Positions 39,167 through 58,183 of a stretch of DNA of 64,000 nucleotides are shown here, in pieces (within the stretch, counting starts at the first letter, position 1; each line of letters opens with the position of its first letter). Below the pieces are notes generated by a model. It was not told the origin of the DNA. It was given only the letters and a program-made list of their open reading frames with translations, and ran no database searches. Source of the DNA: an uncultured Bacilli bacterium (GTDB lineage Bacteria; Bacillota_I; Bacilli_A; RFN20; CAG-449); NCBI GenBank assembly GCA_947627505.1, contig CANQWG010000001.1, positions 9,216-73,215 of the forward strand, in the 5' to 3' direction. A program made the translations under genes and the position numbers.

Positions 39167-40321
39167 TTATTTAAAAATTTTATCAATGAGACCAACGGTT
39201 TCGTTAGGAAATATATGTGAATAAGTATCTAAAGTTTCTTTAACAGAACTGTGCCTTAAATGCTTGCTTACAATTAAAGGAGATATACCTGCATTTATCA
39301 TTCGTGAAGCGCAACTATGTCTTAAGCCATGAAATTTTATATGCGATATATTAGCATCTTTAGCGTGCTTATCCATTATTCTTCTAATAGTTGTTCTAGA
39401 AGTGTGTTTATGACCGAAAAACATATAATCATCATCTGTGGCATACATATCTTCTTTTAGTTTTATTAAATCATTTGTTAGATCTTCGGACATAGAAACT
39501 GTTCCGTGACTACTAGCGGTTTTAGCATCATCTAAATTTCCGCTGCTATCCATGCTTTTGTTTATATTGATTGTTTTTGCTATTGGATTAAAATCACTCC
39601 ACTTAAGTGGTATAAGTTCACCAATTCTTAAACCGCAAACATATGTCGTTTTAAATAATAATCTCCAAATATCATCTTTTTCGAAAGTAGCGTAGAATTT
39701 ATCCCATTCTTCGTTGGTCCAAAAAGATAATGATTCTTTACTTGATGAAATAGATTCCCTAATAGGTTTAATCAATACTTTTAATTTTCTATATAGTTCA
39801 TAAGATATATATTCATGGTCGGATGCATATTCTAACATATTTTTTAATAGTAAGAGTATTCGATTTTTTCTTTTTGACTTAATTGTTTTAATGTTTATAA
39901 TTTTAGCTTTAAAATTTTCTATTGTATTTATCGTAAATGCTTTTTCTAACGATAAAGAAATTGAAAAGTTAGGCAAAATATATTTCTTAATCATTAAATT
40001 TTTATTGTAAGTAGTTTGTGTTTTTAGCATTGATTTGCACTCGGTTATAAATAATTTAGATAATTCATAAAGCGTTATAGAAGCTTCAGAGTGCAAATAT
40101 AATTTCCTTCTTTTTTTATCTTTTTCTATTTCTTCAGCTTCTATTGCTTGGACAAACTTTTTGCCACGTTCTTTTGTCCATTCTTTATTGTATATACTAA
40201 TTGTTTTAAACGTTCCATCTGGTAATTTTAAATTATAACATATAAAATATCTTTTTCTTGATTTGTTGTAGCAAATACTCATTGTTTTTTCCTCCTTATT
40301 TTTGTTATAATAGAGGAGCAA
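39167..40321 (-). CDS. Phage tyrosine integrase (site-specific recombinase)
   Basis: 384 aa. The C-terminal catalytic region HGLRHSCASRMINAGI…LRHSSVKETLDTYSHIF carries the R-H-R-Y signature. It sits next to tRNA-Thr. Confidence 0.85.
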   Translation of the reverse strand: MLLYYNKNKEEKTMSICYNKSRKRYFICYNLKLPDGTFKTISIYNKEWTKERGKKFVQAIEAEEIEKDKKRRKLYLHSEASITLYELSKLFITECKSMLKTQTTYNKNLMIKKYILPNFSISLSLEKAFTINTIENFKAKIINIKTIKSKRKNRILLLLKNMLEYASDHEYISYELYRKLKVLIKPIRESISSSKESLSFWTNEEWDKFYATFEKDDIWRLLFKTTYVCGLRIGELIPLKWSDFNPIAKTININKSMDSSGNLDDAKTASSHGTVSMSEDLTNDLIKLKEDMYATDDDYMFFGHKHTSRTTIRRIMDKHAKDANISHIKFHGLRHSCASRMINAGISPLIVSKHLRHSSVKETLDTYSHIFPNETVGLIDKIFK

Positions 40322-40489: not shown

Positions 40490-41128
40490 TCACTTTATAT
40501 CGCTTTGAAAAGCGATTGCCTTTCCTATAATTCTTATATCATTTAGTTCCTCGCCGATATAAACTAAAGGAGCGTATTTTGGATTCTCGGCTTGCAGAAT
40601 CAGCTTTCCTTTGTCTGGATAATAGTAAACGCGTTTTAATGTAGCTTCATTGTCAATGATTACAACTGCTATATCACCATTGTTAACCATGGATGCACTT
40701 TTGATAAATACTATATCACCATCATAAATTCTTGCACCAACCATGCTATCGCCTCTTGCAATTAGGCAAAAATCAGCGTGAATTTTTGTTCCTAATTTAA
40801 CATAGGATTCTCTGTCTTCGTTAGCAAACTTTGGTGTTCCACAAGATATTTCGCCCAAGCAAGGAAGACTTTGTTTGTCAATTTGGTAGAAGTTGTCAAA
40901 GTTTTCGATATATTCTTCGTTTGCATTATCTTCCCATCCCATAATTTTTGCTGGAGAAACCAATAAAGCATCGGCTAATAATTTAATCTTATCTCTTTTC
41001 ATATTTGAGATATTTCCTGATTCCCATCTTGAAATAGTTGCTTCTGATACATTAACCTTTTCAGCTAGTTGCTTCATAGTCAAACTCAGTTCAATTCTTC
41101 TATTTTTAATAAATTCTCCAATTGTCAT
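40490..41128 (-). CDS. cI-like phage repressor (XRE HTH plus S24 LexA-like peptidase)
   Basis: HTH LSLTMKQLAEKVNVSEATISRWESG and S24 motif GDSMVGARIYDGDIVFIK. Start chosen at MTIGEF, which has AAAGGAGG 6 nt upstream. Confidence 0.8.
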   Translation of the reverse strand: MTIGEFIKNRRIELSLTMKQLAEKVNVSEATISRWESGNISNMKRDKIKLLADALLVSPAKIMGWEDNANEEYIENFDNFYQIDKQSLPCLGEISCGTPKFANEDRESYVKLGTKIHADFCLIARGDSMVGARIYDGDIVFIKSASMVNNGDIAVVIIDNEATLKRVYYYPDKGKLILQAENPKYAPLVYIGEELNDIRIIGKAIAFQSDIK

Positions 41129-41165
41129 AGCAACGCCTCCTTTCATAATTATTATTAGCAAATGA

Positions 41166-41268
41166 CTTGCTTTTTTGCAAGCATTACTAAAAAAAAAGGA
41201 AAAAAACTTGCATTCGCGTATTGACAACAGATTTTTTTAATAGTAATATGTACTTGCGTAAATGCAAG
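41166..41268. promoter_or_regulatory. cI/cro divergent control region
   Basis: Two 16-bp palindromic operators, CTTGC-N6-GCAAG, at 41166-41181 and 41253-41268. A sigma-70-like promoter lies between them (TTGACA 41221-41226, 17-bp spacer, TAATAT 41244-49). Confidence 0.55.
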
Positions 41269-41556: not shown

Positions 41557-41826
41557 ATGAGACAGCAATTTGGAGATCTAACAATAGAAAAGAAAGAGCA
41601 ATTACTGTCGAAGCCATGTATTAGAGTTGAAGACGTTATGGTTCTAACGGGATATGGCCGTAGTATGTGTTATCAATTGATGAATGAATGCAGACAAAAT
41701 TTTAACGGCCGCGCTGGTATCAGAACTGATGCAATAACACCTAAATCATTATGTTTGGCCCTAGGCACAACAATAGAGGCAGAAATGAGACTCATCGGAA
41801 TAGCAAAAGGATATATACAGCTATGA
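41557..41826 (+). CDS. Small phage DNA-binding protein (putative HTH)
   Basis: 89 aa, in the early-operon position. Confidence 0.3.
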   Translation: MRQQFGDLTIEKKEQLLSKPCIRVEDVMVLTGYGRSMCYQLMNECRQNFNGRAGIRTDAITPKSLCLALGTTIEAEMRLIGIAKGYIQL

Positions 41827-42503
41827 AAAAAATGTATAAAAGAGAGATTTACTCGACCAAAGAAGAATGGCTCAACAATAGAGGTTTTGGGGGTAGTTCT
41901 GCAAGTGCAATCTTGGGAAAAAACCCTTATATGACAATAATCGAATTGTACAAACGTATTGTTCATGGTGGTTCACCAAAGAATGATTCTAATGAATCTA
42001 TGCAATATGGGACATTATGTGAACCACTTATGAGAAAACTGTTTGCGCTCGACTATAAGGACAAATACAAAGTTAAAGCTCCTTGCAAGTATGAAATGTA
42101 TCGACGAAAAGACAAACCTTATTTAACTGCAACTCTTGACGGAAGATTAACCGACCTAATCAGTGGAGTTAAAGGAATATGGGAATGTAAAACACATGAT
42201 GTTAGAAACAAAGCGGATGATGAAATGTGGCAATTAGGATTACCGGATAATTATTTCATCCAATGCTTACATTACCTTGTAGTAATGAATGATTGTGATT
42301 TTGTAATTTTAACCGCTAAATTAAGATATTTTGACTATTACCACGAAGACGGAAAGAAATTACTTTATCAAAAAATTATCTATCACATGATCTGGCGTGA
42401 TGATGTCAAAGATCAATTAGATTACTTAGAAAAGCAAGAAACGGACTTTTATGAAAATAACGTCCAAAAAAAAATTATGCCAAATTATTCAATTAAATTT
42501 TAG
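41823..42503 (+). CDS. YqaJ-like viral recombination exonuclease
   Basis: …NRGFGGSSASAILGKNPYMTIIELY is the YqaJ N-terminal motif. Paired with RecT downstream. Start at MKKMYK, which overlaps the upstream stop (ATGA). Confidence 0.7.
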   Translation: MKKMYKREIYSTKEEWLNNRGFGGSSASAILGKNPYMTIIELYKRIVHGGSPKNDSNESMQYGTLCEPLMRKLFALDYKDKYKVKAPCKYEMYRRKDKPYLTATLDGRLTDLISGVKGIWECKTHDVRNKADDEMWQLGLPDNYFIQCLHYLVVMNDCDFVILTAKLRYFDYYHEDGKKLLYQKIIYHMIWRDDVKDQLDYLEKQETDFYENNVQKKIMPNYSIKF

Positions 42504-42511
42504 GAGGAAAT

Positions 42512-42964
42512 ATGGAAAAAGAATTGAAACTTGTACCTGTGCAAGACAAAGAAACAGGCGTCTATCAAATAGAAAATTTTGAGGAAAACAAAAAAATAGT
42601 TAAGGATTTCTTGGCCAATGAATGCCATGTTGAAATGGAAATAAATTCGGCTGAAGACTACAAACTTATCAAGAACACTAGAACGGATATTCGCAAAAAG
42701 AGAGAGACGATAAAAAATATTCGTATCCAAGTGTCCGAAATGTTAATTGGTGTCTTCGAATCTCAATTAAAAGAAATTGAAAGAGAAATCGATGCGACAG
42801 ATTTAATCTTGAAGGAAAAAATTGATGCTTACGATAAATTGATTAACAACAAGCAAGACAAGCCTTCGAAGATTACTTTAACCGTTAAAGGTTACGATAT
42901 GCAAAAAATTCAAAAAGTCAAAGATTATGCCATTAAGCAAGGCTTAGAGGCAGCAATTAAATAG
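42512..42964 (+). CDS. Hypothetical phage protein
   Basis: ORF with an RBS; sits between the exonuclease and RecT. Confidence 0.4.
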   Translation: MEKELKLVPVQDKETGVYQIENFEENKKIVKDFLANECHVEMEINSAEDYKLIKNTRTDIRKKRETIKNIRIQVSEMLIGVFESQLKEIEREIDATDLILKEKIDAYDKLINNKQDKPSKITLTVKGYDMQKIQKVKDYAIKQGLEAAIK

Positions 42965-42976
42965 GAGGAAATAACA

Positions 42977-43876
42977 ATGGCAAATGAACTTTCAAAAAAT
43001 CTAAAAAACGAGGTTAGTGCTGCTATTAGCAATACTACGATAGCAGATTCAATATTAAAAAACTTCAGTCAACTTGTGGAGGCAGAACAATTAAAATTTC
43101 CGGAGAATTATAACGTAGGTAACCAGTTAAAACTAGCATATTTAACCATTATTCAAAACCCAGATTTCATAGGGTGTACATCCACTTCAATTGGACAAGC
43201 ATTAACTGAATTTGCGCTTCAAGGTTTAGAGGTAGATAAAAAGCAAGTTTATTTCATTAAATATGGAAATCAGCTAAAAATGTTTAGATCTTACTTTGGC
43301 GACGTGGCAGTTGCTTATAGAACCGAATTGGTAAAGGACATTAAAGCAATGGTCGTTTACAGCGGAGATAAGTTTGAAACAACCATTTCTAATGATGAAG
43401 AAGTTGTTGCATATCACAAAACATCTTTTGTCAATCGAGACAATGAAATTATTGGAGCATACGCTGTAGCCACTTTACCAGATGGAGCAAAAAGATATTG
43501 CATAATGACTAAAAAAGAAATTGAGGCCAACTGGAATAAATCGCGTTCACAAAAAAGAGAAGTACAAAAAGAGTTCCCACAGGAAATGGCCAAAAGGACT
43601 GTTATCCGCCGTCTAGTTAAGATGTTATTTAACACTGCCAACACAAGCGACAACTATATCGCGGCAACAATTGCTTCGTACAACAGAACAACCGAAGAAG
43701 AATACGAAAATAGTATAGAAAACTCTCCGACTCCAAGAAAAACAACGGTGCATAATTCTATTTTACCAGAGGCGAATCCATCATCTGAAGAATTAGTCGC
43801 GGATCCGGTGGAAGATGTTGTTGAAACTGCCGAGCCGTCAGTTGAATCAGTTGCAGATGAAGTTGTAGATGAATAG
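42977..43876 (+). CDS. recT: RecT-family single-strand annealing protein
   Basis: 299 aa with an acidic C-terminal tail. It sits in the standard position after YqaJ. Confidence 0.65.
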   Translation: MANELSKNLKNEVSAAISNTTIADSILKNFSQLVEAEQLKFPENYNVGNQLKLAYLTIIQNPDFIGCTSTSIGQALTEFALQGLEVDKKQVYFIKYGNQLKMFRSYFGDVAVAYRTELVKDIKAMVVYSGDKFETTISNDEEVVAYHKTSFVNRDNEIIGAYAVATLPDGAKRYCIMTKKEIEANWNKSRSQKREVQKEFPQEMAKRTVIRRLVKMLFNTANTSDNYIAATIASYNRTTEEEYENSIENSPTPRKTTVHNSILPEANPSSEELVADPVEDVVETAEPSVESVADEVVDE

Positions 43877-43889
43877 GTGGTAAGTAATT

Positions 43890-44057
43890 ATGCTTTTAAA
43901 AGAGACGCGTAAAATTGATTCTAAGGGAAGAATTATTCTTCCCCCACCTTTATTAAGACAATGCAAATTAAAACCTGGCGATGTTGTTTTTTTCGAAAGT
44001 ACTAAATCTGGATCAATTATTATTCGGAAAGACAAGAGCGATGAACAACAAAAATAA
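43890..44057 (+). CDS. AbrB/SpoVT-type small DNA-binding protein (55 aa). It is missing from the ORF track because it is under 60 aa.
   Basis: Translation MLLKETRKIDSKGRIILPPPLLRQCKLKPGDVVFFE… matches the swapped-hairpin AbrB/MazE motif. RBS AGGTGG upstream. Confidence 0.5.
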   Translation: MLLKETRKIDSKGRIILPPPLLRQCKLKPGDVVFFESTKSGSIIIRKDKSDEQQK

Positions 44058-44967
44058 AGCCCAAAAATATTATTGGTTCAAGCTAAAATTATCCTTTTTG
44101 GATAGTCCCAAAGTAGATTTTCTAATGTCGCAAAATGGTGGAGCTAATTATGTAGTGATTTACCAAATGCTTTGTTTGAAAGCGATTAACACAAACGGTA
44201 AATTAGAAACATCTGTGAAAGAATGTAGAATCAAATGGGACGACGCTAAAATACAGCGTGAATTAAAGTACTTTGAAATAGACACAATACGAATCGCCAT
44301 GACTCTATTCCTACAACTCGGTTTAATCGTTCCTGATGAAGAAGGTATACTTCAAATTCAAGATTTTAGCGAGCTTGTCGGTTCTGAAACCGGTGCTGCT
44401 ATTGAAAAAAGAGAGCAAAGAAAAAGAATAGACAAAGGGATAGACAAAGGGATAGACAAAAGAATAGACAAAGGGATAGACAAAGGGATAGACAATGTCT
44501 ATCCAGAGTATAGAGATAAGAGTATAGAGTATAGATATAAGAATATAGAGAATATAGATAATATAAATAATATATATAATACTTTAGAAGATAAAAAAGA
44601 TAAAAAAGATAAAAAAGATAAAACCCCTGACGAGGTGTCAAAAAATCCCTTCATAATATTTCTTTTGTCGAAAAATTTTTTTACCAAAAAAGATTATATC
44701 GAAATTCCACTCATCGAAGAGTTTTACGATTCACTGCTTGAGGGCTATTCGTTAAAATCACCTGAATGGATACAACAATATAAAAATATTTTCATAGCAA
44801 CCAAATATATGGTTACCTATGCTTCTAACCCAGAGATTATTGAAGATAAATTAAGTTACATTAAAACCGCAATTAGCGATTCACTTAATAGAAATTACAA
44901 TAATTCGGATTGGATGGAAGAGTGCGAACGCTATTTCGAAACTCATCCGGAACTAAAACGTTATTAA
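44041..44967 (+). CDS. Phage replisome organiser / replication initiator with internal iterons (origin of replication)
   Basis: The N-terminus MNNKNKAQKYYWFKLKLSFLDSPKVDFL resembles phage_rep_org_N proteins. The coding sequence holds 12-bp tandem repeats that translate to DKGIDKGIDKRIDKGIDKGID. Confidence 0.55.
   Translation: MNNKNKAQKYYWFKLKLSFLDSPKVDFLMSQNGGANYVVIYQMLCLKAINTNGKLETSVKECRIKWDDAKIQRELKYFEIDTIRIAMTLFLQLGLIVPDEEGILQIQDFSELVGSETGAAIEKREQRKRIDKGIDKGIDKRIDKGIDKGIDNVYPEYRDKSIEYRYKNIENIDNINNIYNTLEDKKDKKDKKDKTPDEVSKNPFIIFLLSKNFFTKKDYIEIPLIEEFYDSLLEGYSLKSPEWIQQYKNIFIATKYMVTYASNPEIIEDKLSYIKTAISDSLNRNYNNSDWMEECERYFETHPELKRY
44428..44626 (+). repeat. Iteron cluster and AT-rich unwinding element. 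There are about 5.7 copies of ATAGACAAAGGG (44428-44499), then TATAGAG-type AT-rich repeats, then 3 copies of GATAAAAAA (44591-44626).
   Basis: Tandem repeats are directly visible, in a lambda-O-like arrangement with the origin inside the initiator gene. Confidence 0.7.
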
Positions 44968-45004
44968 AACCGACCAAATAAAAAAACAATAGAGGCAAAA
45001 AGAA

Positions 45005-45451
45005 ATGAATAATGCACAATGGAGATTATATAATCTTTTGAAAAAGAAAAATCAAGAAAATCCAAATCACTGGGTTACTCACGAAGAAATATGCAAAGAA
45101 TTGCCGGATTTATTTTCATTAAATCATAAAGCAATCAATAAAATGTGTTCGTCGCATATTCAACAGCACATTTTAAAAATCAATGAAGATAATAAAATTG
45201 AAAAAATAATCATGTATAAAAATCAAAGTTACCGTTTGGCAAAAGATTCGGTCGAAGCTTTCGATTTTATTCGCAATAAGTTATTTATTCGCGGATTAAG
45301 ACATTTAAAACGTTATTGGACCTTATTAGACAAAATACGAAGCGACGGTCAAATGAAATTACTCTCAAATAGAAGTGAAATCATAGATAAAGATTCTCGT
45401 GCCAGAGATTATTTTGAAACTTATTTACCGACGGGAAAAAATCAAACATGA
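45005..45451 (+). CDS. Hypothetical phage replication-module protein
   Basis: ORF only. Confidence 0.4.
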   Translation: MNNAQWRLYNLLKKKNQENPNHWVTHEEICKELPDLFSLNHKAINKMCSSHIQQHILKINEDNKIEKIIMYKNQSYRLAKDSVEAFDFIRNKLFIRGLRHLKRYWTLLDKIRSDGQMKLLSNRSEIIDKDSRARDYFETYLPTGKNQT

Positions 45452-45837
45452 AAAAAACTTTTGCTATTTTCAATGAATTTAATCTTATTGGGCGACTGTG
45501 TAATACTCCTCAAAAGGAATTTACCAAAAATCATCAACTATTTACACGCATTACTTTAAAAACCCGATTTCGAGACGAAATATTTATTCCAATAATCATG
45601 TTTGGAAAAGAAGTCGATGTTGTATGCACTAAATTTCAAATTGGCGACGTTGTGGCCATTAAAGGTCAAATCTCTTCGCGAGAAAAACAAGACGGGAAAT
45701 TGATGATAGATTTTGTTGCAACAGAAATGCAATTGATTTCTAAAACAAATCTTGAAATCGTCCAAGAAGATAAATTCTTGAAAGTTATTGAATTATATGA
45801 TCCTGAAAAAGTGACCAAAAGAATGATGAAAAAATAG
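45448..45837 (+). CDS. SSB-like OB-fold protein (no acidic tail)
   Basis: FNLIGRLCNTPQKEF…ITLKT resembles the SSB N-terminal OB fold. Confidence 0.45.
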   Translation: MKKTFAIFNEFNLIGRLCNTPQKEFTKNHQLFTRITLKTRFRDEIFIPIIMFGKEVDVVCTKFQIGDVVAIKGQISSREKQDGKLMIDFVATEMQLISKTNLEIVQEDKFLKVIELYDPEKVTKRMMKK

Positions 45838-45846
45838 GAGGCAAAT

Positions 45847-46218
45847 ATGGCTTTAAATAATTCTTTTCGACTAATAGGCACAATTATTACTCCTTTCAAC
45901 AAAGTTAAAAGAGGTAAATATAATGTCTACGAAGTTGAAATCGAAGTTCAAAATGGTAAGTCGATTCAAACAATTCCACTTACATTTTACGCTAAAACGG
46001 CGAACCCTGTTACCGATTACACTCGAGATTTAACCGGCATGCAAGTAGCGGTCGGAGGATACATCCAGGGCAATCGCTACAGCTTGCAGGACAAAGTTAT
46101 TCACTACATTTATATGGTTGTCAATGAATTATCAATCATATCTAAAGGATTTGACGATATGAACACCGGTGTTAGTGCACAAGGAATCTTAATTCCTGAC
46201 GATGATTTACCATTTTAA
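45847..46218 (+). CDS. ssb: Single-stranded DNA-binding protein
   Basis: OB-fold start FRLIGTI… and the canonical acidic C-terminal tail DDDLPF. Confidence 0.65.
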   Translation: MALNNSFRLIGTIITPFNKVKRGKYNVYEVEIEVQNGKSIQTIPLTFYAKTANPVTDYTRDLTGMQVAVGGYIQGNRYSLQDKVIHYIYMVVNELSIISKGFDDMNTGVSAQGILIPDDDLPF

Positions 46219-46241
46219 AAAACAATAAGGAGAAAAATAAA

Positions 46242-47090
46242 ATGAAAAACGTTAAAAACTTAACTCTAGAAGAAAGAGTAACACTCTTAGAAAAGCAAAT
46301 GAGCAACTTAGTTGCAAATAAAGAATTAACAACGGAATTTGCATTGAATGTCAAAAACCTTAAAAGCAGTGGCGAACCCAAAGGAGTAGATTTCTTGAAT
46401 TATGTAGAATCGCTTTCAGAAAAGATTGAAGATGAACACAAGAACATCTATGTAAAATTACCTACAATTTATGTCAATGTAATGAGTAGAATTATTTACT
46501 TCTCGTTTAACGAGATCGATGGCTATATCAAATTACAGCCTCAATTAGTTTCTAAATATAAAAACTCATTAGTAGATGGAAAGATAAGATCTATTCCAAA
46601 TGTCGCTCCAAACTTCTCGCAATTCTCATTTAACAAAGCTACGAAATTTTGCAAGTGGGTTGATGGCGAACAACTGAATTGGCGTACCGTTCTTTACTTC
46701 CAAATAATGTGGGCGTACGCATACGGAACCAAAAATAATAACTCCATTTTGCCAAATGAAAAATATAATTGGAGTAGTGAAAGAGATTGTGCTTTTGGTG
46801 ACACAGGTAAAGGAATAGGCGAGTTTTTGGGCGTTGAGCAATTATTTACATCAGGTCGAAATTTTGTTGATCTTAGCGACCATGAAACAGAACTGTGGAA
46901 AATATATAAAGAATGGAATTTTAATGAACAATTTGATCCTAACGCAAAATTCGCTGAATGGGGCGATTATGATCCTGACGAAAAGTCAAAAGGGGTCTTC
47001 TTCTCGGATTGGAATAATGGGTTCAACCGCTGTTGGAACGCCGGCGACCGCGCCGTCCGCCTTTGCAAAAAGCCTTATGAAGGGTGTTAG
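46242..47090 (+). CDS. Hypothetical phage protein
   Basis: ORF only. Confidence 0.4.
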   Translation: MKNVKNLTLEERVTLLEKQMSNLVANKELTTEFALNVKNLKSSGEPKGVDFLNYVESLSEKIEDEHKNIYVKLPTIYVNVMSRIIYFSFNEIDGYIKLQPQLVSKYKNSLVDGKIRSIPNVAPNFSQFSFNKATKFCKWVDGEQLNWRTVLYFQIMWAYAYGTKNNNSILPNEKYNWSSERDCAFGDTGKGIGEFLGVEQLFTSGRNFVDLSDHETELWKIYKEWNFNEQFDPNAKFAEWGDYDPDEKSKGVFFSDWNNGFNRCWNAGDRAVRLCKKPYEGC

Positions 47091-47111
47091 GATTATCTTT
47101 AATTTATCAAT

Positions 47112-47558
47112 ATGGCAAAACAAGAAAACAAGGTAATTAAAACAGCCGCAGATTCGGTCAGAAAAATTTTATTTAACTTTGATCTGGAAATGACTGCAAG
47201 TGTTGGGGAGTTGAAACTCGCAAGAGCAAAAACTCTCCGCTATAAAAATCCTAAAAATAATCGAGAAAAAGAGATTTACACAAACGCTCGCATCGATGAA
47301 GAGAAATTAAAAGTATTTATTCAACAATTGACGGCCGGGAAAAATGAAACGTGGCAGTCCTTAGAACAAATTTTAGAAATCTATAATCCAAAATACAAAA
47401 AGATTTGGTTAATGTATTTTATCAGCCAATATACTTACGAAGAAATCGCCCAAAAAACTAATTATTCCGTAGATGGTGTTAATTTTATAATTCAAAAATT
47501 AAAAAAAGACTTAATTGATTTAAACCTAATTGCAAAGGAGGATAACGCAAGTGAGTGA
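47112..47558 (+). CDS. Sigma-70 region-4-like / ArpU-like late transcription regulator
   Basis: …YTYEEIAQKTNYSVDGVNFIIQKLKK is a region-4-type HTH. Confidence 0.4.
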   Translation: MAKQENKVIKTAADSVRKILFNFDLEMTASVGELKLARAKTLRYKNPKNNREKEIYTNARIDEEKLKVFIQQLTAGKNETWQSLEQILEIYNPKYKKIWLMYFISQYTYEEIAQKTNYSVDGVNFIIQKLKKDLIDLNLIAKEDNASE

Positions 47559-48132
47559 TTGTTTGAAAAATGTAAAATTTAAAATTATTAGTCCGATTGT
47601 TACAAAAGCAAGACCTAAAGCAAGAGTAGTTAACGGACAATACGCTCAAATGTATACACCTAAAAAGACTTCTGTTTATGAAAATTTTATCAAACTAAAT
47701 TATCAAGAAAAAGTGAATTACTTTTTTGACGAAAGGCCATTAGAAGTTGCGATTGTTGCCTACTTCAAATGCCCAAATGCTCTTAAAAAATATATACCAT
47801 TCGATATCAAGTGTGTTAATCATAAAGATCTTGATAATATTGCAAAAACAATTTTGGATGCCTTAAATGGTATAGCTTATAAAGACGATAAACAAGTTCA
47901 AAAATTGCATGTTACTAAGAAATATTCCGAAACCGACTATGATTATGTCGAGGTATCAATCAGCGATGTTGTGGGAACTCTTGAAGAGGTTAAACAAATG
48001 TATGAATATGAGAAATTAACGCAAGAAATCTCAAAATTAGAAAGCAAAGGCACTTTAAATGCAAAAGACAAAGAACGGCTTATAAAACTAAAGGAAAAAA
48101 CTAATAGTTTTAGTACTCCGTTACCGTTTTAA
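47548..48132 (+). CDS. rusA: RusA-family Holliday junction resolvase (with a C-terminal extension)
   Basis: DLDNIAKTILDALNGIAYKDDKQV is the RusA catalytic signature. Start at GTG 47548, which has AAGGAGG upstream. Confidence 0.6.
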   Translation, partial: QVSDCLKNVKFKIISPIVTKARPKARVVNGQYAQMYTPKKTSVYENFIKLNYQEKVNYFFDERPLEVAIVAYFKCPNALKKYIPFDIKCVNHKDLDNIAKTILDALNGIAYKDDKQVQKLHVTKKYSETDYDYVEVSISDVVGTLEEVKQMYEYEKLTQEISKLESKGTLNAKDKERLIKLKEKTNSFSTPLPF

Positions 48133-48148
48133 AGGAGATGAAAGCAAA

Positions 48149-48538
48149 ATGACAATAGAACAATTAAGAACCCAAGACAAAAAACATGCGCAAGTAATTG
48201 CAAATTATCTAATAAAAAGAATTGAAACCGACCAATGCTTAAAAGAAAAAATTGAAACAACAACTAAAACATTAAAAGGATGTGTTAAATATTGTAAAAA
48301 TGAGGCGCGTAAACAAGCTGAAGATGGATGTGCAATGATTCCTGATGATGAAGTGTTTAAGTGGGCAGTTCATTATTTTCTTGAAGATTCAATCAAAGAA
48401 AATGAAATACCATCTATTCCTAATTCTAAAATTAACAATGAAAAAAATAATACTCAAAAATTTACTTCTGATACTAAAAAAGATAAAGATGTAAAAAAGA
48501 AACTTATCGAGCAATTAACATTATTTGACTTAGGTTAA
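48149..48538 (+). CDS. Hypothetical phage protein
   Basis: ORF only. Confidence 0.35.
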   Translation: MTIEQLRTQDKKHAQVIANYLIKRIETDQCLKEKIETTTKTLKGCVKYCKNEARKQAEDGCAMIPDDEVFKWAVHYFLEDSIKENEIPSIPNSKINNEKNNTQKFTSDTKKDKDVKKKLIEQLTLFDLG

Positions 48539-48539
48539 T

Positions 48540-49865
48540 ATGGAACCATTTGATTACAATCCAATACTAGAACTTGTTGACTATCCAATTACGCTAGAAG
48601 ATAAGATTAAAGAATTGGGATATTATTTTTCAAGTTATTTAGAATATGATGCAAAGAAAAAAGAATTTATACGACATGTTTATGCAAGTCGAACCACGAA
48701 AAAAAATGGTTTTGAGTGCATGGAAATTTTTAGAGAATATGAAAGCGGCTTAAAAATAGGAAAAAATTTTTATTATTGCTCATACGGAAATGCTGCAGGG
48801 ATGCACGTTGTTTGGAAAAACACAAATTCATTTTATTACGGAAATAAAGAAAGGATTAAAAAATTTGTTGAATGTGATGATTTTATAAATATTGGAATGT
48901 TTCGGTCGTTTCAAATGACTACATTAGAGGAAATTGTAAGTAATGATTTAAATTTGAGATTTTGTCGATGGAACAATCACGTTGATGCTTTAAATTATAT
49001 TAAAATTTACAAAAGATATCCGATTGTAGAAATGCTAATGAAACTTGAATTATATCACTTAGTCTTTAATGAAAAATGCCTTTTGTTAATGATAGAAAGT
49101 AAACAATTTTGCAGATGGCTTTTTAAAAATAGAGATGCGATAAAAAAAGATCAAATTTCTTTTCCAGCTTTAAAATCTGCGTTTAAAAACGGGCAAGATG
49201 TTGCTAAATATAATGAGAAAATTATTAAAAAAAGATTGGATGCTAAAAGAATATCAGATGAGTTAGGCACTCAACTTTATCATCTTATAAAAGATGTATG
49301 TAAAGATTTTAATAAGGCGCAAAAATATGCTCAAATGGTTGGTAAAGAAAATTATCGAGATTATTTAGAAGCTTGCAAATTTTTGAAATTAGATTTATCT
49401 GATACAAAAGTTTTATATCCAAAAAATTTTAAATACTGGCATGATTTTTACGTTAATCAAATGACCTCAGCAAAAAACACAATAATAGATCAAAATATAT
49501 TAAAACAGGCCAAGCGATATAAATATTTGCTTTTAGATTTAGAAAAATTAGTTTTAATTTTTCCTTCAAAAACTCAAGATTTTATCGATGAGGGCAACGC
49601 ATTACATCACTGTGTAGGTCGTATGAATTATAACGAAAAGATGGCTAAAGGTGAATCGCTAATTATTTTCATTAGAAAAAAAACAGCACCAAACAATCCA
49701 TTTGTTACGATGGAATATAATCCTAAAAAAAAGAACATACAGCAAATTTATGGCAATCATGATGAACCACCTACTGCAGAAGTTAAAAATGAAATTTATA
49801 ACTTTTGGCTTCCAATGGTGCAACAAATAAAAAATAAGAAGTTAAAGGAGAAAAAAATAATATGA
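48540..49865 (+). CDS. PcfJ-like protein
   Basis: 441 aa; a weak resemblance to plasmid and phage PcfJ-domain proteins. Confidence 0.4.
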   Translation: MEPFDYNPILELVDYPITLEDKIKELGYYFSSYLEYDAKKKEFIRHVYASRTTKKNGFECMEIFREYESGLKIGKNFYYCSYGNAAGMHVVWKNTNSFYYGNKERIKKFVECDDFINIGMFRSFQMTTLEEIVSNDLNLRFCRWNNHVDALNYIKIYKRYPIVEMLMKLELYHLVFNEKCLLLMIESKQFCRWLFKNRDAIKKDQISFPALKSAFKNGQDVAKYNEKIIKKRLDAKRISDELGTQLYHLIKDVCKDFNKAQKYAQMVGKENYRDYLEACKFLKLDLSDTKVLYPKNFKYWHDFYVNQMTSAKNTIIDQNILKQAKRYKYLLLDLEKLVLIFPSKTQDFIDEGNALHHCVGRMNYNEKMAKGESLIIFIRKKTAPNNPFVTMEYNPKKKNIQQIYGNHDEPPTAEVKNEIYNFWLPMVQQIKNKKLKEKKII

Positions 49866-49934
49866 GAGCTGATGAATTAGTAGACAAAGAACGAGGAATA
49901 AGTATTTTTTCGGTTTTAATTAAAAGGAAACAAA

Positions 49935-50692
49935 ATGTTTGAATTAAACAAAATTTACCTAGGAGACGCTTACGAGCTTATTAAAAAAATTCCCGACAAA
50001 AGCATTGATTTGATTGTTACTGATCCACCATATGAGATAAATACGATGACAGGCGGTGGAAATTGCATTATCAATGGAACGTTGGCAAAATGGAGCCAAA
50101 AAACTTGTTTTAAAGACTTGGGAGAAAACAAATTAAATATCGGAATAGATGAAAGTATTTTAAATGAATTTATGCGAATTTTAAAGTTACCAAACATTTA
50201 TATATGGTGTAATACAAAGCAAATATATAAATATTTAAAGTTTTTTGTAGGGAAACACAATTTGAATTTTAAACCTATAATTTGGAACAAAATAAACGCT
50301 ATGCCATTATGCGGAGGAAAATATCTTGATGATTGCGAATATTGCTTATATTTTTACAAAGGTATTCGCTTAAATGCTTCTTACGATACGGCAAAAACTG
50401 TTTATTATGAGCCGATAAATTATAACGATAAAAAACTTTTTTCACATCCGACAATTAAACCATTAAATATTATTAAGAATCTTATTATCAATTCTTCTAA
50501 CGGGGGGGGGGTATAATTCTAGATCCGTTTATCGGAAGCGGAACTACAGCAGTAGCGTGCAAGGAGCTTGGGCGTAACTATCTAGGTTTTGAAATCAATG
50601 AAAAATATTATCAAATCGCCGTTGATAGGATTAACGGTACAACTCAAAAAGAAAAGAAACAAGGAATAAAACAATTAACATTATTTGATTAA
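49935..50692 (+). pseudogene. Beta-class DNA methyltransferase (N4-cytosine or N6-adenine) interrupted by a frameshift in a G10 homopolymer (50502-50511)
   Basis: The upstream frame has DPPY motif IV (IVTDPPYEIN) and ends …SSNGGGV*. The downstream frame continues GIILDPFIGSGTTAVACKELGRNYLGFEINEKY (motif I, FxGxG). The frame is restored by +1 G or -2 G. Confidence 0.75.
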
Positions 50693-50705
50693 AAAAGGAG
50701 GAAAA

Positions 50706-50888
50706 ATGGATTACGAAAAAATTATTGACGCGTTAAAAACAATTAAAGAAGTATGCAAGAAATCAGACTGCACTGATGACAATTGTCCTTTTTGCGAAGA
50801 GGCAACTTGTTGTATTCAAAAAGTGGCGCCAGAGTATTGGGAAATTAAAGATATTGAAGAAATAGAACAAATTAAGGTTTTTAAATAA
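50706..50888 (+). CDS. Small Cys-rich phage protein (two CxxC motifs)
   Basis: Contains SDCTDDNCPFCEEATCC. Start MDYEK has AAGGAGG upstream. Confidence 0.4.
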   Translation: MDYEKIIDALKTIKEVCKKSDCTDDNCPFCEEATCCIQKVAPEYWEIKDIEEIEQIKVFK

Positions 50889-50894
50889 GTATGG

Positions 50895-51128
50895 GTGGTT
50901 AAAAAAATGAAGAGTAAATTATTATCATCGCCAAAAAAGGGTGCTTCAATCAAAGAAAAATTAGATTTTTACGATCATTTAATGGAACAAGGCGATTTAA
51001 CTTTAAAGCAGTTAAAAGTGCTAAGACAAAGATTGTATAAAATCGACACTTACTTCCAAGATTGCGAAATCATAATTCAAAAAGGCGTTCTGTTGGAATG
51101 TGTCAACGAACTAATTAAGGAGTATTAA
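50895..51128 (+). CDS. Hypothetical phage protein
   Basis: ORF only. Confidence 0.3.
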   Translation: MVKKMKSKLLSSPKKGASIKEKLDFYDHLMEQGDLTLKQLKVLRQRLYKIDTYFQDCEIIIQKGVLLECVNELIKEY

Positions 51129-51130
51129 AT

Positions 51131-51490
51131 ATGTTAACCGATGAATTGAGACAGCAAATAAAAGAATCAAATCTTACTAAAGAAGATTTAAAAGTTATTT
51201 TTTTAGATAACTTTATTAACAAGTATAAAGACGGATCATTGTATTTAAATTTAATCGATTTAGACTTTAGTGATTTTAATGGTGATATTTATATTTCAGG
51301 AATGAAAGTTAAGAAAAATTTATATCAATCTTGTCAAGAAGTTAAAGGTGATTTATTTCAAGATAATCAAGAAGTAAAAGGTGATTTATTTCAAGATAAT
51401 CAAGAAGTAAAAGGGGATTTATATCAAGATAATCAACAAGTACAAGGAAATATACGTTCATCCAAAAGCAAAATAAGAAAGGATAAATAA
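51131..51490 (+). CDS. Hypothetical phage protein with three 33-bp tandem repeats (QDNQEVKGDLF x3)
   Basis: The repeat CAAGAAGT(T/A)AAAGGTGATTTATTTCAAGATAAT occurs three times between 51331 and 51430. Confidence 0.4.
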   Translation: MLTDELRQQIKESNLTKEDLKVIFLDNFINKYKDGSLYLNLIDLDFSDFNGDIYISGMKVKKNLYQSCQEVKGDLFQDNQEVKGDLFQDNQEVKGDLYQDNQQVQGNIRSSKSKIRKDK

Positions 51491-51507
51491 ATTAAGGAGA
51501 AAAAACT

Positions 51508-51918
51508 ATGGGATTAACTATGAGAGCGTGCTATAAAGGTGCACTAGAATATGACTTTGGCTATGGAAGAATGTTTAGTTTGCGAGAAACCATTGCAAAG
51601 GAGGTATTAAAAGATAAATTCTACGTTTATACAGAGTGGTTAAAAACAAATCATAAAACACCAAAAGATGAATTATCAAAAATATGTGAAAATTTAAGAA
51701 AAGCGGTTGGATTATCAGTTTATTCATTTTTAACGCAATCTGATTGTGATGGTAAACTTACTCTTAAAGAAGTTAAGGACATTTACGAAAAGATTAAAGA
51801 TAGTAAAGCAAATCTATCCTTATGTTACGGGGCTTGGTATGACGAAGAAAGTGATAAAGACTTTATAAATTTGTTAGAAGATTGTATCGAACATAAACGT
51901 GGTTTGAAGTGGTTTTAA
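51508..51918 (+). CDS. Hypothetical phage protein
   Basis: ORF with an RBS. Confidence 0.35.
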   Translation: MGLTMRACYKGALEYDFGYGRMFSLRETIAKEVLKDKFYVYTEWLKTNHKTPKDELSKICENLRKAVGLSVYSFLTQSDCDGKLTLKEVKDIYEKIKDSKANLSLCYGAWYDEESDKDFINLLEDCIEHKRGLKWF

Positions 51919-51936
51919 AAAAAAGAAAGAAAAATA

Positions 51937-52134
51937 ATGATTGACAATATAACGTTTTGTGAACTTTGTAAAAAGCAATTACAAAAAGAATTAGGATTTA
52001 AAGCAGATGAAATAATGCTTATGGAAACAGAGCAAAATGCTGATAAACAAGACGAATTACCATATTATTATCTATTTGTTTATAAAGGAAAACGATATAG
52101 ATATATATTTGGTAAATTAACAGAACAAAAATAA
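51937..52134 (+). CDS. Hypothetical small phage protein
   Basis: ORF only. Confidence 0.3.
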   Translation: MIDNITFCELCKKQLQKELGFKADEIMLMETEQNADKQDELPYYYLFVYKGKRYRYIFGKLTEQK

Positions 52135-52150
52135 GAGGAGAAAAAAATAA

Positions 52151-52486
52151 ATGAAACATAATCAACTTTTGAAATCATGGCAAAAACGCCTTAGACTCAA
52201 CGATTGGACATTTAAAGTCATAGATTTATGCTCACCAGAAGATTTTAAATTAAGTGGTGTATGTGGTGAATGTGATTATCAAGAGGTAAACAAGAGTGCA
52301 ATTATTCGTATTATTTCTCCTGATTTTTATGGAGATCGCCTTATTCCGTTTAATTACGAAAAAATATTAGTGCATGAACTATTACATGTAAAATTTGCTC
52401 TTTTAGAGAATAGTGAAAACGAACTTCAAAATAGGATTGCTCATCAACTTATCGAAGATTTATCTCGAGCGTTTGTAGGAATGTAA
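52151..52486 (+). CDS. Hypothetical phage protein
   Basis: ORF only. Confidence 0.35.
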   Translation: MKHNQLLKSWQKRLRLNDWTFKVIDLCSPEDFKLSGVCGECDYQEVNKSAIIRIISPDFYGDRLIPFNYEKILVHELLHVKFALLENSENELQNRIAHQLIEDLSRAFVGM

Positions 52487-52498
52487 GGAGGAAAAGAA

Positions 52499-53068
52499 AT
52501 GAAAGCAGACGAATATTTAGTAGAAATGTTAGAAAACATTAAAGCAGAAAACGAGAAACTAAAAAAAGAAATCAAAGAATTAAAAGAAGAACGATACAAT
52601 TTATTAGGACAAAGGGATACTCTTACTTCTGGTGATGATACAAATATGACGATAATTGAGAAAACAGGAAATATTTTTGAAATATCTTATTTTCAAGATT
52701 ATGAAATTATATCTGCAATAAACGATAATAAAATAACAATAAGAGACTTAGGAGAAGCTTTGTTAGATGATAATAAAATATTACAAAAACTTGAGGAAAA
52801 TTTAGGTGTTAATAAAAAATATTATTTAGCTCATGTTGATCCATTTCAGTATGAGTATTTGATAAAATTTTTAGGCAGAACAATAGCAGTTCCTAGGAAT
52901 GCGTTTCGTCAATCATTAGATTGCGAATACAGCATTGTTCATTGTTATAATATCGATAATAAAAGTTATTTTTTAGATTATGAACAAGCCAAAAAAGCAG
53001 TTATTGAAAAAGCAAGAGACGAAATTAGAAAAGCTTTAGATATATTCACAGGGGTTGAGGAACAATGA
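52499..53068 (+). CDS. Hypothetical phage protein (N-terminal coiled coil)
   Basis: ORF only. Confidence 0.35.
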   Translation: MKADEYLVEMLENIKAENEKLKKEIKELKEERYNLLGQRDTLTSGDDTNMTIIEKTGNIFEISYFQDYEIISAINDNKITIRDLGEALLDDNKILQKLEENLGVNKKYYLAHVDPFQYEYLIKFLGRTIAVPRNAFRQSLDCEYSIVHCYNIDNKSYFLDYEQAKKAVIEKARDEIRKALDIFTGVEEQ

Positions 53069-53655
53069 AATCAGTTTTAATTCCTATTCACCCTAAATGG
53101 TGTGAATTTATCGCAAATGGCAAAAAAACTGTAGAAGTAAGAAAAAACAAACCCAAATTAGAAGTTCCGTTTAAGTGTTATATTTATTGTACAAAAGGGG
53201 GAAATCTACTTCGACTGATTGATGTATATGCCCTTTGTCAAAAACATATTAAAGACAAAAATAAGTTTGATGAGCATTATAAAACAGTTCGAATTTCTCA
53301 ATCTCATTATTGTACTAATCCCATTGTAAATGGCAAGGTTATTGGCGAGTTTGTGTGCGACCAAATAGACGAATTTCACGATTGGCAACTAAAACCATAC
53401 GGCAAGTTTAGAGACAACGAACAAAAGGAATTGGAAAATTTCTTGAAAAAAAGCTGTTTGTCATATGATGAAGTGTTGGAATATCGCAAAAATTTGGAGT
53501 ATTATCAACCCATTTACGGCTGGCATATCTCTAATTTTAAGATATATGAAGAATCCCGAGAATTAAGTGGGTTTACCAATTTACAAGGTAAAAAAATAAT
53601 GAAAGCACCACAAAGTTGGATGTATGTAATAAACAAAGGAGATAAAAAACTATGA
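53065..53655 (+). CDS. ASCH-domain protein
   Basis: MKSVLIPIHPKWCEFIANGKKTVEVRK is an ASCH-like start. Confidence 0.45.
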   Translation: MKSVLIPIHPKWCEFIANGKKTVEVRKNKPKLEVPFKCYIYCTKGGNLLRLIDVYALCQKHIKDKNKFDEHYKTVRISQSHYCTNPIVNGKVIGEFVCDQIDEFHDWQLKPYGKFRDNEQKELENFLKKSCLSYDEVLEYRKNLEYYQPIYGWHISNFKIYEESRELSGFTNLQGKKIMKAPQSWMYVINKGDKKL

Positions 53656-53990
53656 AAAACTTTTATAACATCGGCGAATCTACAAAATATGCAATGACAG
53701 AATATGAAAAATATTTGGAAGCAAAGCGCCAAACTGTATTAGATACTATAAAGCCTATTTGTGAGGCATTTGGCATAACGAATTATGATTATATTGTTAA
53801 AACATCAGGGCAACGAGAAACGCTCGTTGTAGAAAACACCAAAATAGGCTGTTCCGATGATTCTATTGGAGCAATAGTGCAAGAACTTGTCAACTACATT
53901 TGGATCCAGTGTGGCTGTATTAACCGATTATCCCAATATAGAAAATATATCAAAAATACACTTACAGGATATTGGTTAAAAGGAGAGTAA
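53652..53990 (+). CDS. Hypothetical phage protein
   Basis: ORF only. Confidence 0.35.
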   Translation: MKNFYNIGESTKYAMTEYEKYLEAKRQTVLDTIKPICEAFGITNYDYIVKTSGQRETLVVENTKIGCSDDSIGAIVQELVNYIWIQCGCINRLSQYRKYIKNTLTGYWLKGE

Positions 53991-53993
53991 ACA

Positions 53994-54659
53994 ATGAAAA
54001 AAACAAAAATAGATTGGTGCGATGTAACGCTGAATCCGGTTGTGGGTTGTAAAAATAATTGCCCATATTGCTATGCAAAGAAACTTAACGATAGATTTCA
54101 TTTTGTTGAAAATTGGAATGAACCACAATTTTTCCCCGAAAGATTAAAAGAATTAAATTCTAAAAAACCAAAATCAATCTTTATGAATAGCATGAGCGAT
54201 ATAGGATTTTGGAAAGAAGAGTGGTTAAGTGCCACATTTGAAGCTATGCAAAAGAATCCTCAGCATAAATACATTTTCTTGTCAAAATGTCAAAACGGCT
54301 TTTTAGGGAAACTAAAATTCTATATGGGGTTAGAAGATATAGCGTTCTTTGGTTTATCTATTACTACGGCACAAGATTGGCAAAAACTGCAAGGTAGCCA
54401 CTTTGATTTTGTCAGCATAGAGCCGCTTTTGGAAGACTTAGGCTTGCACAGATACAGCTATCATCCTTTGTCGTTAGAACAAATTATTATCGGTGCTGAA
54501 ACAGGCAACAGAAAAAACAAGATCGTTCCTAAAAAAGAGTGGGTAAACAAGATCGTTGAATTTGCAGACGAACATAATATTAGAGTGTTTATGAAATCAA
54601 GCTTAAAGGATATTATGGGCAAAGATTTTAGGCAAGATCCATTGCTTTGGAACAAATAA
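53994..54659 (+). CDS. Phage Gp37/Gp68-family protein (DUF5131)
   Basis: TKIDWCDVTLNPVVGCKNNCPYCYAKK is the characteristic N-terminus. Confidence 0.6.
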   Translation: MKKTKIDWCDVTLNPVVGCKNNCPYCYAKKLNDRFHFVENWNEPQFFPERLKELNSKKPKSIFMNSMSDIGFWKEEWLSATFEAMQKNPQHKYIFLSKCQNGFLGKLKFYMGLEDIAFFGLSITTAQDWQKLQGSHFDFVSIEPLLEDLGLHRYSYHPLSLEQIIIGAETGNRKNKIVPKKEWVNKIVEFADEHNIRVFMKSSLKDIMGKDFRQDPLLWNK

Positions 54660-54670
54660 AAAAAAGAGGA

Positions 54671-54910
54671 TTACTCCTCTTTTTTAATGTCATTAAGTAT
54701 TAACTTTCTTATATAATCGGCTTTGTTTGGAACACTATCAAGTTTATTGAGAATTTCTATGTCGTTTATAAGATTATATCTCACGCTGATGCAACGAGTA
54801 TTCGCTTGGTGCCAATGGTTGATTCGGGTTAAAATAGCTTTTTTCCTTTGCTTTTCAGTTTTGTACTTAACGTTATGTGCTCCGCCTCTAGTTTCCTTTT
54901 TTTGGGGCAT
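54671..54910 (-). CDS. Small basic ribbon-helix-helix-like DNA-binding protein; last gene of the antisense island
   Basis: Basic N-terminus plus DSVPNKADYIRKLILNDI (RHH helix 2-like). Confidence 0.3.
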   Translation of the reverse strand: MPQKKETRGGAHNVKYKTEKQRKKAILTRINHWHQANTRCISVRYNLINDIEILNKLDSVPNKADYIRKLILNDIKKEE

Positions 54911-57022: not shown

Positions 57023-58132
57023 TTATTCTTTTATGTCTAGAATTAAATTAGTTGCTTTTCTGGATTGGCCAATGGTGCTTAAAATGTTGTGCTTGATTCC
57101 TTCCTTTAGTCCTTGACCCCAACTCTTTAAATAAGCGATGCTGTTGTTAAGTAGATCATCGGTCATTATTTTTAGTGAAATCATGGAATAAAGGCTGGAT
57201 AACTCTGCGACAAGTTCTTCTTTGCTGTAAGTAGTAGAAGCGAATCCACAACTGCTAGTCAGGGTTTTCCGATTCAGAAGCGAGTGATGCCCTGTTGAGT
57301 GGGCGAACTCATGCAACATCGTTTGGTAGTAATTTTCAATCGATTCAAATTGGTTTTTAGTCGGAATTGTGACGCTATGATCAGAAGGGCGATAGAACGC
57401 GCAATTTTGTGCGACTTCTTTAAAAGTTAAGTGGGCTCTTTCAATGTAAGATTCTTTAATTTTTTCCACTTTTTGAATGCGCTTTAAATCATTCTCTGGC
57501 TGTTCTGCCTCATCTTCAATCTTCCACAACTCTTTAACATTCAAGCCGCAATCTTCCGCTTTGAATAAATATTCCAATACATATTGAAATTTTCGATATT
57601 TAAATTGTTGCTTGATATTATCCCATTCTAAACTTTCATTAAATTCTTTTTCGTTGCCTTTAGAATCGGTGTATTTGAATTTAACTTTGACTTCTAATTT
57701 TACACCGGCGATAAGTTGTTCTATTTCTTCTTTTAATTCTTCTTTGTCTTTCATTTCTTTTTCTAGTGCTTCTCGCTCGATAGTTGTTAAGTATTTGTAA
57801 AATTTACATGCTTTGTAGTTTGGCGTGCCTTTAGCGCCTTTGTTTAGATGCAATTTGTGCTCTTTGATTTGCTTAAAAGTGACATAGAATCCAGCCGGCA
57901 CAAAGAGTGGATCATATTCTTTCATCGTGTAAGTGTTAATTGCCAGCATGTCATCCATTACTAGGTCGTAAATACTTCTTGTTGTCTGATTGGTTGTAGT
58001 GGTCCAAGTCTTGCGCCACGCTTTAACGTTGCCAGATTCAATTATTTCGATAATTTTTTCGGCAGTTGCAACGTTCATTTGGTAGTCGTTCTTGACCGCC
58101 GGATTTTTAGATTTTAAATTTTCTTTCTTCAT
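57023..58132 (-). CDS. ArdC-like anti-restriction protein (N-terminal ssDNA-binding domain plus C-terminal HExxH metalloprotease)
   Basis: N-terminal …ESGNVKAWRKTWTTTT (DUF1738-like) and C-terminal MLHEFAHSTGHHSLLNR zincin motif. Start at MKKENLK. Confidence 0.55.
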   Translation of the reverse strand: MKKENLKSKNPAVKNDYQMNVATAEKIIEIIESGNVKAWRKTWTTTTNQTTRSIYDLVMDDMLAINTYTMKEYDPLFVPAGFYVTFKQIKEHKLHLNKGAKGTPNYKACKFYKYLTTIEREALEKEMKDKEELKEEIEQLIAGVKLEVKVKFKYTDSKGNEKEFNESLEWDNIKQQFKYRKFQYVLEYLFKAEDCGLNVKELWKIEDEAEQPENDLKRIQKVEKIKESYIERAHLTFKEVAQNCAFYRPSDHSVTIPTKNQFESIENYYQTMLHEFAHSTGHHSLLNRKTLTSSCGFASTTYSKEELVAELSSLYSMISLKIMTDDLLNNSIAYLKSWGQGLKEGIKHNILSTIGQSRKATNLILDIKE

Positions 58133-58183
58133 TTGGGTTTCCTCTTTCTTTCTGGCGTTTGTTTTGGTAGAATAGAGGCACAA

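Follow-up and report, generated by a model that had tools for sequence, protein, structure and literature searches.

A poly-G tract in a prophage DNA methyltransferase gene as a candidate slipped-strand ON/OFF switch

A run of ten G residues, GGGGGGGGGG, splits a prophage gene for a beta-class DNA methyltransferase of the PF01555 family, with motif IV (DPPY) before the run and motif I (DPFIGSGTT) after it. The gene lies on the forward strand of the 64-kb stretch of DNA that was analyzed here and that we call the window. From the reading frames and from related sequences, we consider it probable that this run is a slipped-strand contingency tract that toggles a phage orphan methyltransferase between an ON state (G8 or G11) and an OFF state (G10). 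The earlier note on this DNA had proposed a candidate slipped-strand ON/OFF tract at this site, and the proposal is now backed by an isogenic G11 allele, by conservation of the tract at the nucleotide level, and by off-frame tract lengths in 5 of 22 tract-bearing homologues.

The tract is the longest homopolymer of the window. G/C runs of at least 6 nt occur four times in the 64 kb (the G10 tract, a G8 and a G6 within CRISPR spacers, and a C6 at 59345), and G8 has four overlapping matches, compared to ∼0.2 expected by chance in shuffled sequence. The N-terminal frame includes motif IV DPPY (50022 to 50033), the target-recognition part, and the HPTIKP helix; its 193-aa product ends in SSNGGGV at a premature TAA (50514 to 50516), two codons past the tract. 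The C-terminal frame holds motif I DPFIGSGTT (50522 to 50548) and the rest of the AdoMet-binding fold and runs to a TAA at 50690 to 50692. When the gene was rebuilt with other tract lengths, G11 gave a single open reading frame (ORF) of 252 aa and G8 one of 251 aa, while G9, G10, and G12 were out of frame; the length of an intragenic repeat toggles the frame, as it does in contingency loci. Both the position of the run between the DPPY and DPFIGSGTT frames and the frame arithmetic of the earlier note are correct: adding one G or removing two does restore one ORF, which is slightly shorter (252 or 251 aa) than the ∼255 aa that had been estimated. The features of the gene and of its prophage surroundings are collected in Table 1.

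Table 1. Features of the prophage and of the split methyltransferase gene, in window positions
Feature	Position	Strand	Basis
Integrase	39167-40321	-	Pfam of the identical locus L003; PHROGs, E 1e-51
CI-like repressor with S24 peptidase domain	40490-41227	-	Pfam of L003; PHROGs, E 3e-43
Same-strand early/replication block, including the methyltransferase gene	41751-54659	+	Pfam, PHROGs
Ribosome-binding site AAGGAA, 5 nt upstream of the ATG at 49935	49924-49929	+	Read from the sequence
N-terminal methyltransferase frame at G10, 193 aa	49935-50516	+	ORF list; Pfam PF01555 on the repaired protein
Poly-G tract G10, proposed slipped-strand switch	50502-50511	+	Frame rebuild, G11 allele, homologous tracts
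C-terminal methyltransferase part, other frame (+2 offset)	50512-50692	+	Frame translation

We also considered a split, two-subunit methyltransferase and rejected it. The C-terminal frame contains no ATG, GTG, or TTG start and has a stop directly upstream of RGGGIILDPF, and no ORF of at least 40 aa is listed in this frame. Because it has no start codon of its own, the C-terminal part would not be translated at G10, which makes an enzyme of two pieces implausible.

The repaired protein matches Pfam PF01555 (N6_N4_Mtase) with 108.1 bits (cut-off, 26.7; E 8.4e-31) over profile positions 1 to 220 of 221 and PHROG phrog_67, “DNA methyltransferase,” with an E value of 1.8e-56. In the 252-aa form, DPPY occupies residues 30 to 33 and DPFIGSGT residues 197 to 204, which is the motif order of the beta class. 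The closest solved relatives by sequence are DpnA (5hek), CcrM (6pbd), N4-cytosine methyltransferases (8s9m), M.MboIIA, and M.RsrI; the matches to the beta-class enzymes DpnA and CcrM and to the N4-cytosine methyltransferases are full length. By these sequence criteria, the gene is a phage orphan beta-class amino-DNA methyltransferase, whose activity and target motif we infer. DPPY instead of SPPY favors N6-adenine specificity in this family, and the motif suggests that the prophage enzyme may be an N6-adenine methyltransferase.

In an AlphaFold (AF2) model, built from 15 homologues with a mean pLDDT of 78.7, the Gly run falls within a loop (188 to 193) between a helix (177 to 187) and a strand (194 to 197) (pLDDT, ∼86 to 88); this strand leads into the FxGSG turn. 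The Gly-rich loop that the tract would encode comes after the helix ending in LIINSS and before the AdoMet fold's first strand, with motif I. Homologues differ in loop length at the Gly run, indicating that 3-nt changes are tolerated, and the 193-aa G10 product lacks the entire AdoMet motif I region. In the mechanism that we propose, slipped-strand mispairing during replication, presumably the cause of the length changes, would alter the number of G residues. A tract of G8 or G11 would then give the full 251- or 252-aa enzyme (ON), while G10 would bring translation to a stop two codons past the tract, leaving a 193-aa protein without motif I and a C-terminal part that could not be translated (OFF).

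Alleles of both kinds are found in otherwise identical sequences. The 193-aa truncated product (P0001) is on record on four contigs in NCBI and ENA, and its 90% cluster has one other member only, the 252-aa protein P0121 encoded on ENA assembly ERZ27249481 (L003). Aligned with window positions 39935 to 60692, this assembly has 0 mismatches over 20,759 nt and a single gap, the eleventh G, which puts the 252-aa frame in the ON state. Another assembly, ERZ27249483 (L001), carries G10 and matches the window without a difference over 6,582 nt. The shared 20.7 kb contain 44 A/T runs of 7 to 9 nt, and each of them has the same length in both assemblies. Since G11 in L003 and G10 in the window and L001 come with no other difference, we conclude that these are ON and OFF alleles in otherwise identical genomes, the kind of length polymorphism that marks contingency loci, as seen here in one pair at low coverage, from samples that are perhaps not independent. 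The isogenic contigs have a coverage of ∼6.7× each and adjacent accession numbers; it is possible that a single sample, or related samples, gave rise to both assemblies and that G10 and G11 differ through stutter of the PCR or of the sequencing at so long a G run.

These observations bear on the possibility of a homopolymer sequencing or assembly error, in which the gene is really intact with a fixed G11 or G8, and both the G10 recorded here and the off-frame lengths from other metagenomes are artifacts of assembling short reads at low coverage. Assembly errors, too, appear as homopolymer frameshifts, and the isogenic contigs, at their low coverage, disagree solely at the longest homopolymer. 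On the other hand, the truncated G10 product has been recorded on four contigs from two archives. Even if the call was wrong, polymerase errors at the tract in vitro would mean that it is prone to slippage in vivo as well. The homologues described below weigh further on this explanation, which we regard as unlikely.

Species-representative genomes, IMG/VR viral contigs, and metagenome contigs provided 241 homologous loci, among which there are 194 distinct site sequences. The closest match to the methyltransferase among species-representative genomes is 54% identical. The commonest form at the site is NSSxxGDxVLDPF, without a G run. Among the 194 distinct site sequences, 22 that are not from the gene itself, found in other phages and metagenome-assembled genomes (MAGs), have G7 to G10 at the same loop. 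According to the earlier note, homologous methyltransferases that lacked a homopolymer at this place would have pointed to a simple assembly error; these 22 distinct homologues keep one. The gene is in frame in 17 of them and is frameshifted exactly at the tract in five: L035, L141, L148 (G10), L090 = L212 (G9), and L156 (G8). None of the ∼170 tract-less homologues is frameshifted at the tract position; apparent frameshifts in tract-less L036, L137, L138, and L177 turned out to be artifacts of tandem paralogous methyltransferase genes.

The frameshifted homologues all come from metagenome, MAG, or viral-contig assemblies, as might be expected if the off-frame lengths were errors. Judging by Illumina error rates, however, off-frame consensus sequences in 5 of 22 homologues are far more than short-read consensus errors would produce, and these homologues are independent and come from different projects.

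A single G suffices to cross the ON/OFF boundary. L089 with G8 is ON and L090 with G9 is OFF, while L182 with G9 is ON and L156 with G8 is OFF; phages on opposite sides of the boundary are related at 87 to 93% DNA identity. Four other loci (L194, L196, L205, and L207), which are 95 to 98% identical, all have an in-frame G9, suggesting that the consensus tract length can be stable. The nearest relatives of tract-bearing sequences are other tract-bearing sequences, down to 60 to 66% amino-acid identity.

The distribution of reading frames also bears on the possibility of recoding, in which transcriptional slippage or ribosomal frameshifting would be programmed at the G run and G10 would yield some full-length enzyme together with the 193-aa form. 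RNA polymerase slippage at long homopolymers is established for A/T runs in bacteria, and a stop just two codons past the tract fits such recoding. However, genes with programmed frameshifting conserve the need for the shift, and these homologues do not: 17 of the 22 tract-bearing homologues and all of the tract-less ones are in frame, and L003 is an in-frame allele of the same gene. Because most relatives and one allele of the same gene are in frame, we consider recoding very improbable.

Codon usage at the loop suggests that the run is maintained. In the 24 distinct sequences with at least two consecutive loop glycines, 52 of the 60 loop Gly codons are GGG; the others are run-terminal GGT codons, plus GGT GGT in L075. 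By contrast, the invariant glycines of motif I, ∼10 codons downstream in the same sequences, are encoded by GGG in only 3 of 48 cases. Elsewhere in the tract genes, GGG makes up 12% of the Gly codons; for the genes of the window, the share is 7% in those of the host and 17% in those of the prophage. The difference between the loop and motif I indicates that the homopolymer itself is conserved, not the glycines alone. Synonymous breaks of the run, neutral for the protein, are possible yet have not accumulated, which points to selection for the run. Thus, as in contingency loci, the repeat appears to be kept against synonymous interruption, by raw codon counts in which the sequences are treated as independent. 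Self-perpetuating slippage in a tolerant loop could add to GGG retention. Error at homopolymers leaves the retention of this rare codon at the loop unexplained.

Alternatively, the gene may simply be decaying, with the tract being the mutational weak point of an unselected prophage gene on its way to one-way inactivation and not a maintained switch. The gene lies in the early block of a repressed prophage, where its loss costs the host nothing; the OFF alleles of the window and of L035 sit in genome bins (MAGs); and in L064, L070, and L151 the homologues are disrupted by simple repeats or indels that have nothing to do with the tract. Yet both halves of the gene are intact and, the tract aside, identical to the ON allele, and the remaining prophage, as far as it lies within the window, looks intact, with integrase, repressor, terminase, and portal genes present. 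In addition, the tract persists across the 60 to 66% amino-acid identity noted above, even though GGA, GGT, or GGC codons would remove the weak point and leave the protein unchanged. Given these observations, decay seems a distinctly unlikely explanation, and we favor a maintained ON/OFF tract.

Other repeats interrupt, or lie within, methyltransferase genes of this family. A second poly-G tract is found in a different loop (around residues 137 to 149, YFxKGGG). At this site, a G9 run accompanies a frameshift in L074 (471 to 479) and L080 (2280 to 2288), two Lachnospiraceae MAGs, while a G8 run is in frame in L026 (1227 to 1234) and L091 (1901 to 1908). In L064, a (TA)n run within the NIYIW codons, at about 3235 to 3255, disrupts the gene. 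In the cultured Enterococcus phage 156 (L164, LR031359.1), the homologue is split at an A8 run (820 to 830) and annotated as two coding sequences; we rejected this split as an instance of the same switch, since it is at a different site and in an A8 run. Three PHROGs families, phrog_8769, phrog_18293, and phrog_23148, consist of short C-terminal methyltransferase fragments that match residues ∼167 to 241 of the repaired protein. PHROGs families of C-terminal fragments match this protein from about residue 193, near the tract, suggesting that deposited phage genomes may often contain methyltransferase ORFs that are split about there. When pipelines discard or “repair” phage methyltransferases frameshifted at G runs, real biology may be lost.

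The window also carries a type II-A CRISPR-Cas locus (63 to 5332), with Cas1 (1077 to 1949), Cas2 (1936 to 2259), Csn2 (2256 to 2915), and an array (2983 to 5332) with 35 spacers, in which a 36-nt repeat occurs 36 times, the final copy being degenerate. Spacer 3 (TCAAACGGGGGGGGACGCTTCCAGAATTTC, 3152 to 3181) has a G8 run and spacer 13 (CAAACGGGGGGACTGATTCCAGAATTTTAG, 3812 to 3841) a G6 run. Their alignment over 27 bases has 24 identities and two indels, of which one falls inside the G run, and by their sequences they clearly appear to be independent acquisitions from variants of one locus. The earlier note had read them as showing different G-run lengths at a site homologous to the methyltransferase tract. 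The runs do differ, but the match to that site is no better than that of shuffled sequence: the likeness is confined to TC(A/T)AACG(n), and controls with a shuffled 3′ flank scored at least as high as the real spacer in 1,000 of 1,000 cases for spacer 3 and in 425 of 1,000 for spacer 13. With the likeness at the level of the controls, spacers 3 and 13 do not bear on the methyltransferase tract, and we rejected them as evidence on it; at most, their difference indicates that the targeted element has a variable G run of its own. None of the 35 spacers had a convincing match in the rest of the window, including the resident prophage, or in the 244 fetched loci, and neither exact nor degenerate searches detected a protospacer of spacer 3 or 13 in viral or metagenome contigs.

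The position of the gene within the prophage provides clues to its role. The left end of the prophage, with its lysogeny module, is recognizable from the integrase and CI-like repressor genes, both on the reverse strand. The early block that follows encodes a YqaJ exonuclease, RecT, a replisome organizer, SSB, RusA, PcfK, PcfJ, the methyltransferase, small ORFs, and DUF5131; beyond it are an ArdC-like anti-restriction gene on the reverse strand, the large terminase, and the portal. The block is downstream of the CI-like repressor, and its first terminator-like site is at 54660 to 54685, with none ahead of the methyltransferase gene. A promoter scan near the gene found 42 sites, compared to 40.9 expected from shuffled sequence, i.e., at chance level. 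The gene context argues for expression of the methyltransferase together with the phage early genes.

No restriction partner (res/hsd or other) was found in Pfam or PHROGs matches among the neighbors of the methyltransferase gene, PcfJ upstream and the small ORFs downstream. These neighbors match no nuclease or restriction family in either collection, so the adjacent cognate endonuclease of a type II restriction-modification (R-M) system was not detected at the site, although one of the small unknown ORFs might conceivably encode it. The ArdC-like gene (57023 to 58183, reverse strand) has the Pfam domains ArdcN and MPTase-PolyVal and matches the PHROG “anti-restriction protein” with an E value of 1e-38; with it, the phage has a second counter-restriction function beside the methyltransferase.

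Since the methyltransferase is encoded in the early/replication block, its main substrate is probably replicating phage DNA, and the likely effect of switching is mixed self-methylation of the phage. Switching would leave a phage population mixed for this trait, in which methylated genomes would be protected from classical restriction, while unmethylated genomes would escape methylation-dependent restriction or be spared the cost of the methylase. We infer the reversibility and the rate of switching at the tract. Bet-hedging of phage DNA methylation, with a presumed selective benefit, is a more likely role than that of a phasevarion, and a phasevarion-like effect on host gene expression is less likely than the earlier note had implied. 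As it stands, the locus, at which no R-M partner was found, does not qualify as a phasevarion.

More tentatively, a poly-G tract at one loop of an anti-restriction methyltransferase might be kept throughout a clade of temperate phages that live on gut Firmicutes, and a second tract at another loop in a sister group, so that their lysate and lysogen populations would be a deliberate, bet-hedging mix of self-methylating and non-methylating phages. This broader proposal is possible, although we would not yet bet on it. If it is true, hosts with classical restriction and hosts with methylation-dependent restriction would be the two sides of the hedge, and the epigenetic state of phages would be a phase-variable trait of the gut virome.

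Methyltransferases switched by repeats, including those that control phasevarions, are known as type III mod genes in Haemophilus, Neisseria, Helicobacter, and Moraxella and as the type IIG gene cj0031, with a polyG tract, in Campylobacter jejuni. The locus described here resembles these systems in that the length of an intragenic repeat sets the frame, in a poly-G length of ∼8 to 11 that is typical of them, and in having ON and OFF alleles in otherwise identical genomes. Unlike them, it encodes a small, orphan, type II-like enzyme of the beta class in a temperate phage, has no detected res/hsd or restriction partner, and lies in a phage early block and not in a chromosomal R-M locus. In Mycoplasma agalactiae, type II and type III methyltransferases are switched by poly(G) and poly(GA) tracts (PMC9465063). 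Unlike the pathogens with classical contingency loci, the host here is a gut commensal, placed among the uncultured Clostridia by its galactokinase, whose nearest relatives are MAG proteins of that group with 72 to 74% identity. A few bacterial pathogens have well-known phase-variable methyltransferases, and contingency loci of phages have been recognized only recently.

Among phages, those of the Campylobacter Fletchervirus group reportedly have hypermutable polyG tracts in their receptor-binding genes (Sorensen et al. 2021); the gene studied here encodes a methyltransferase and not a receptor-binding protein. Hypermutable polyG tracts in Campylobacter phages and contingency loci in T2/T4 have been reported (bioRxiv 10.1101/2025.10.21.683753). 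As in those loci, where reversible frameshifts lead to a mixed phage population, a homopolymer lies within a phage gene; for the prophage studied here, reversible frameshifts and a mixed population are what we propose. A polyG tract in the methylase gene of Bordetella phage BPP-1 was noted but not studied, according to the account of Liu et al. 2004 in the same preprint (bioRxiv 10.1101/2025.10.21.683753), and as far as that account goes, a polyG tract within the methylase gene of a phage has a direct precedent there. Relative to BPP-1, as described there, the present locus adds codon-level conservation of the tract across a clade at one structural loop, as well as natural ON/OFF alleles.

Stand-alone methyltransferases are common ground with other phages: phage orphan enzymes include Dam-like methyltransferases and PamA of a Staphylococcus aureus prophage, which alters host adhesion and biofilm (review, PMC13076061). 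The enzyme described here is likewise a stand-alone protein of a temperate phage (phrog_67). Unlike it, the phage Dam-like enzymes and PamA are not reported as switched by repeats, and PamA-like effects on the host would require expression in the lysogen. What is new here is the natural isogenic ON/OFF pair and the finding that, in gut Firmicutes phages, the tract is conserved at the codon level throughout a clade; the type of switch is already known. If confirmed, the locus would be a natural and easily assayed gut-phage example, with ON and OFF alleles on record and the tract in about two dozen relatives, and would make it possible to test directly if phages use methylation of their own DNA as a hedge against the mix of restriction systems that they meet.

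Two further repeats were observed within the early block. The ORF of the replisome organizer (43981 to 44967) contains 5.7 copies of the tandem 12-nt repeat ATAGACAAAGGG, followed by several AG-rich repeats of 7 to 21 nt (44428 to 44623), which look like iterons of a phage replication origin. A small phage ORF (51131 to 51490) has an in-frame 33-nt tandem repeat in 3.9 copies (51318 to 51447; peptide QEVKGDLFQDN), possibly another length-variable site. The host also carries sugar-utilization genes.
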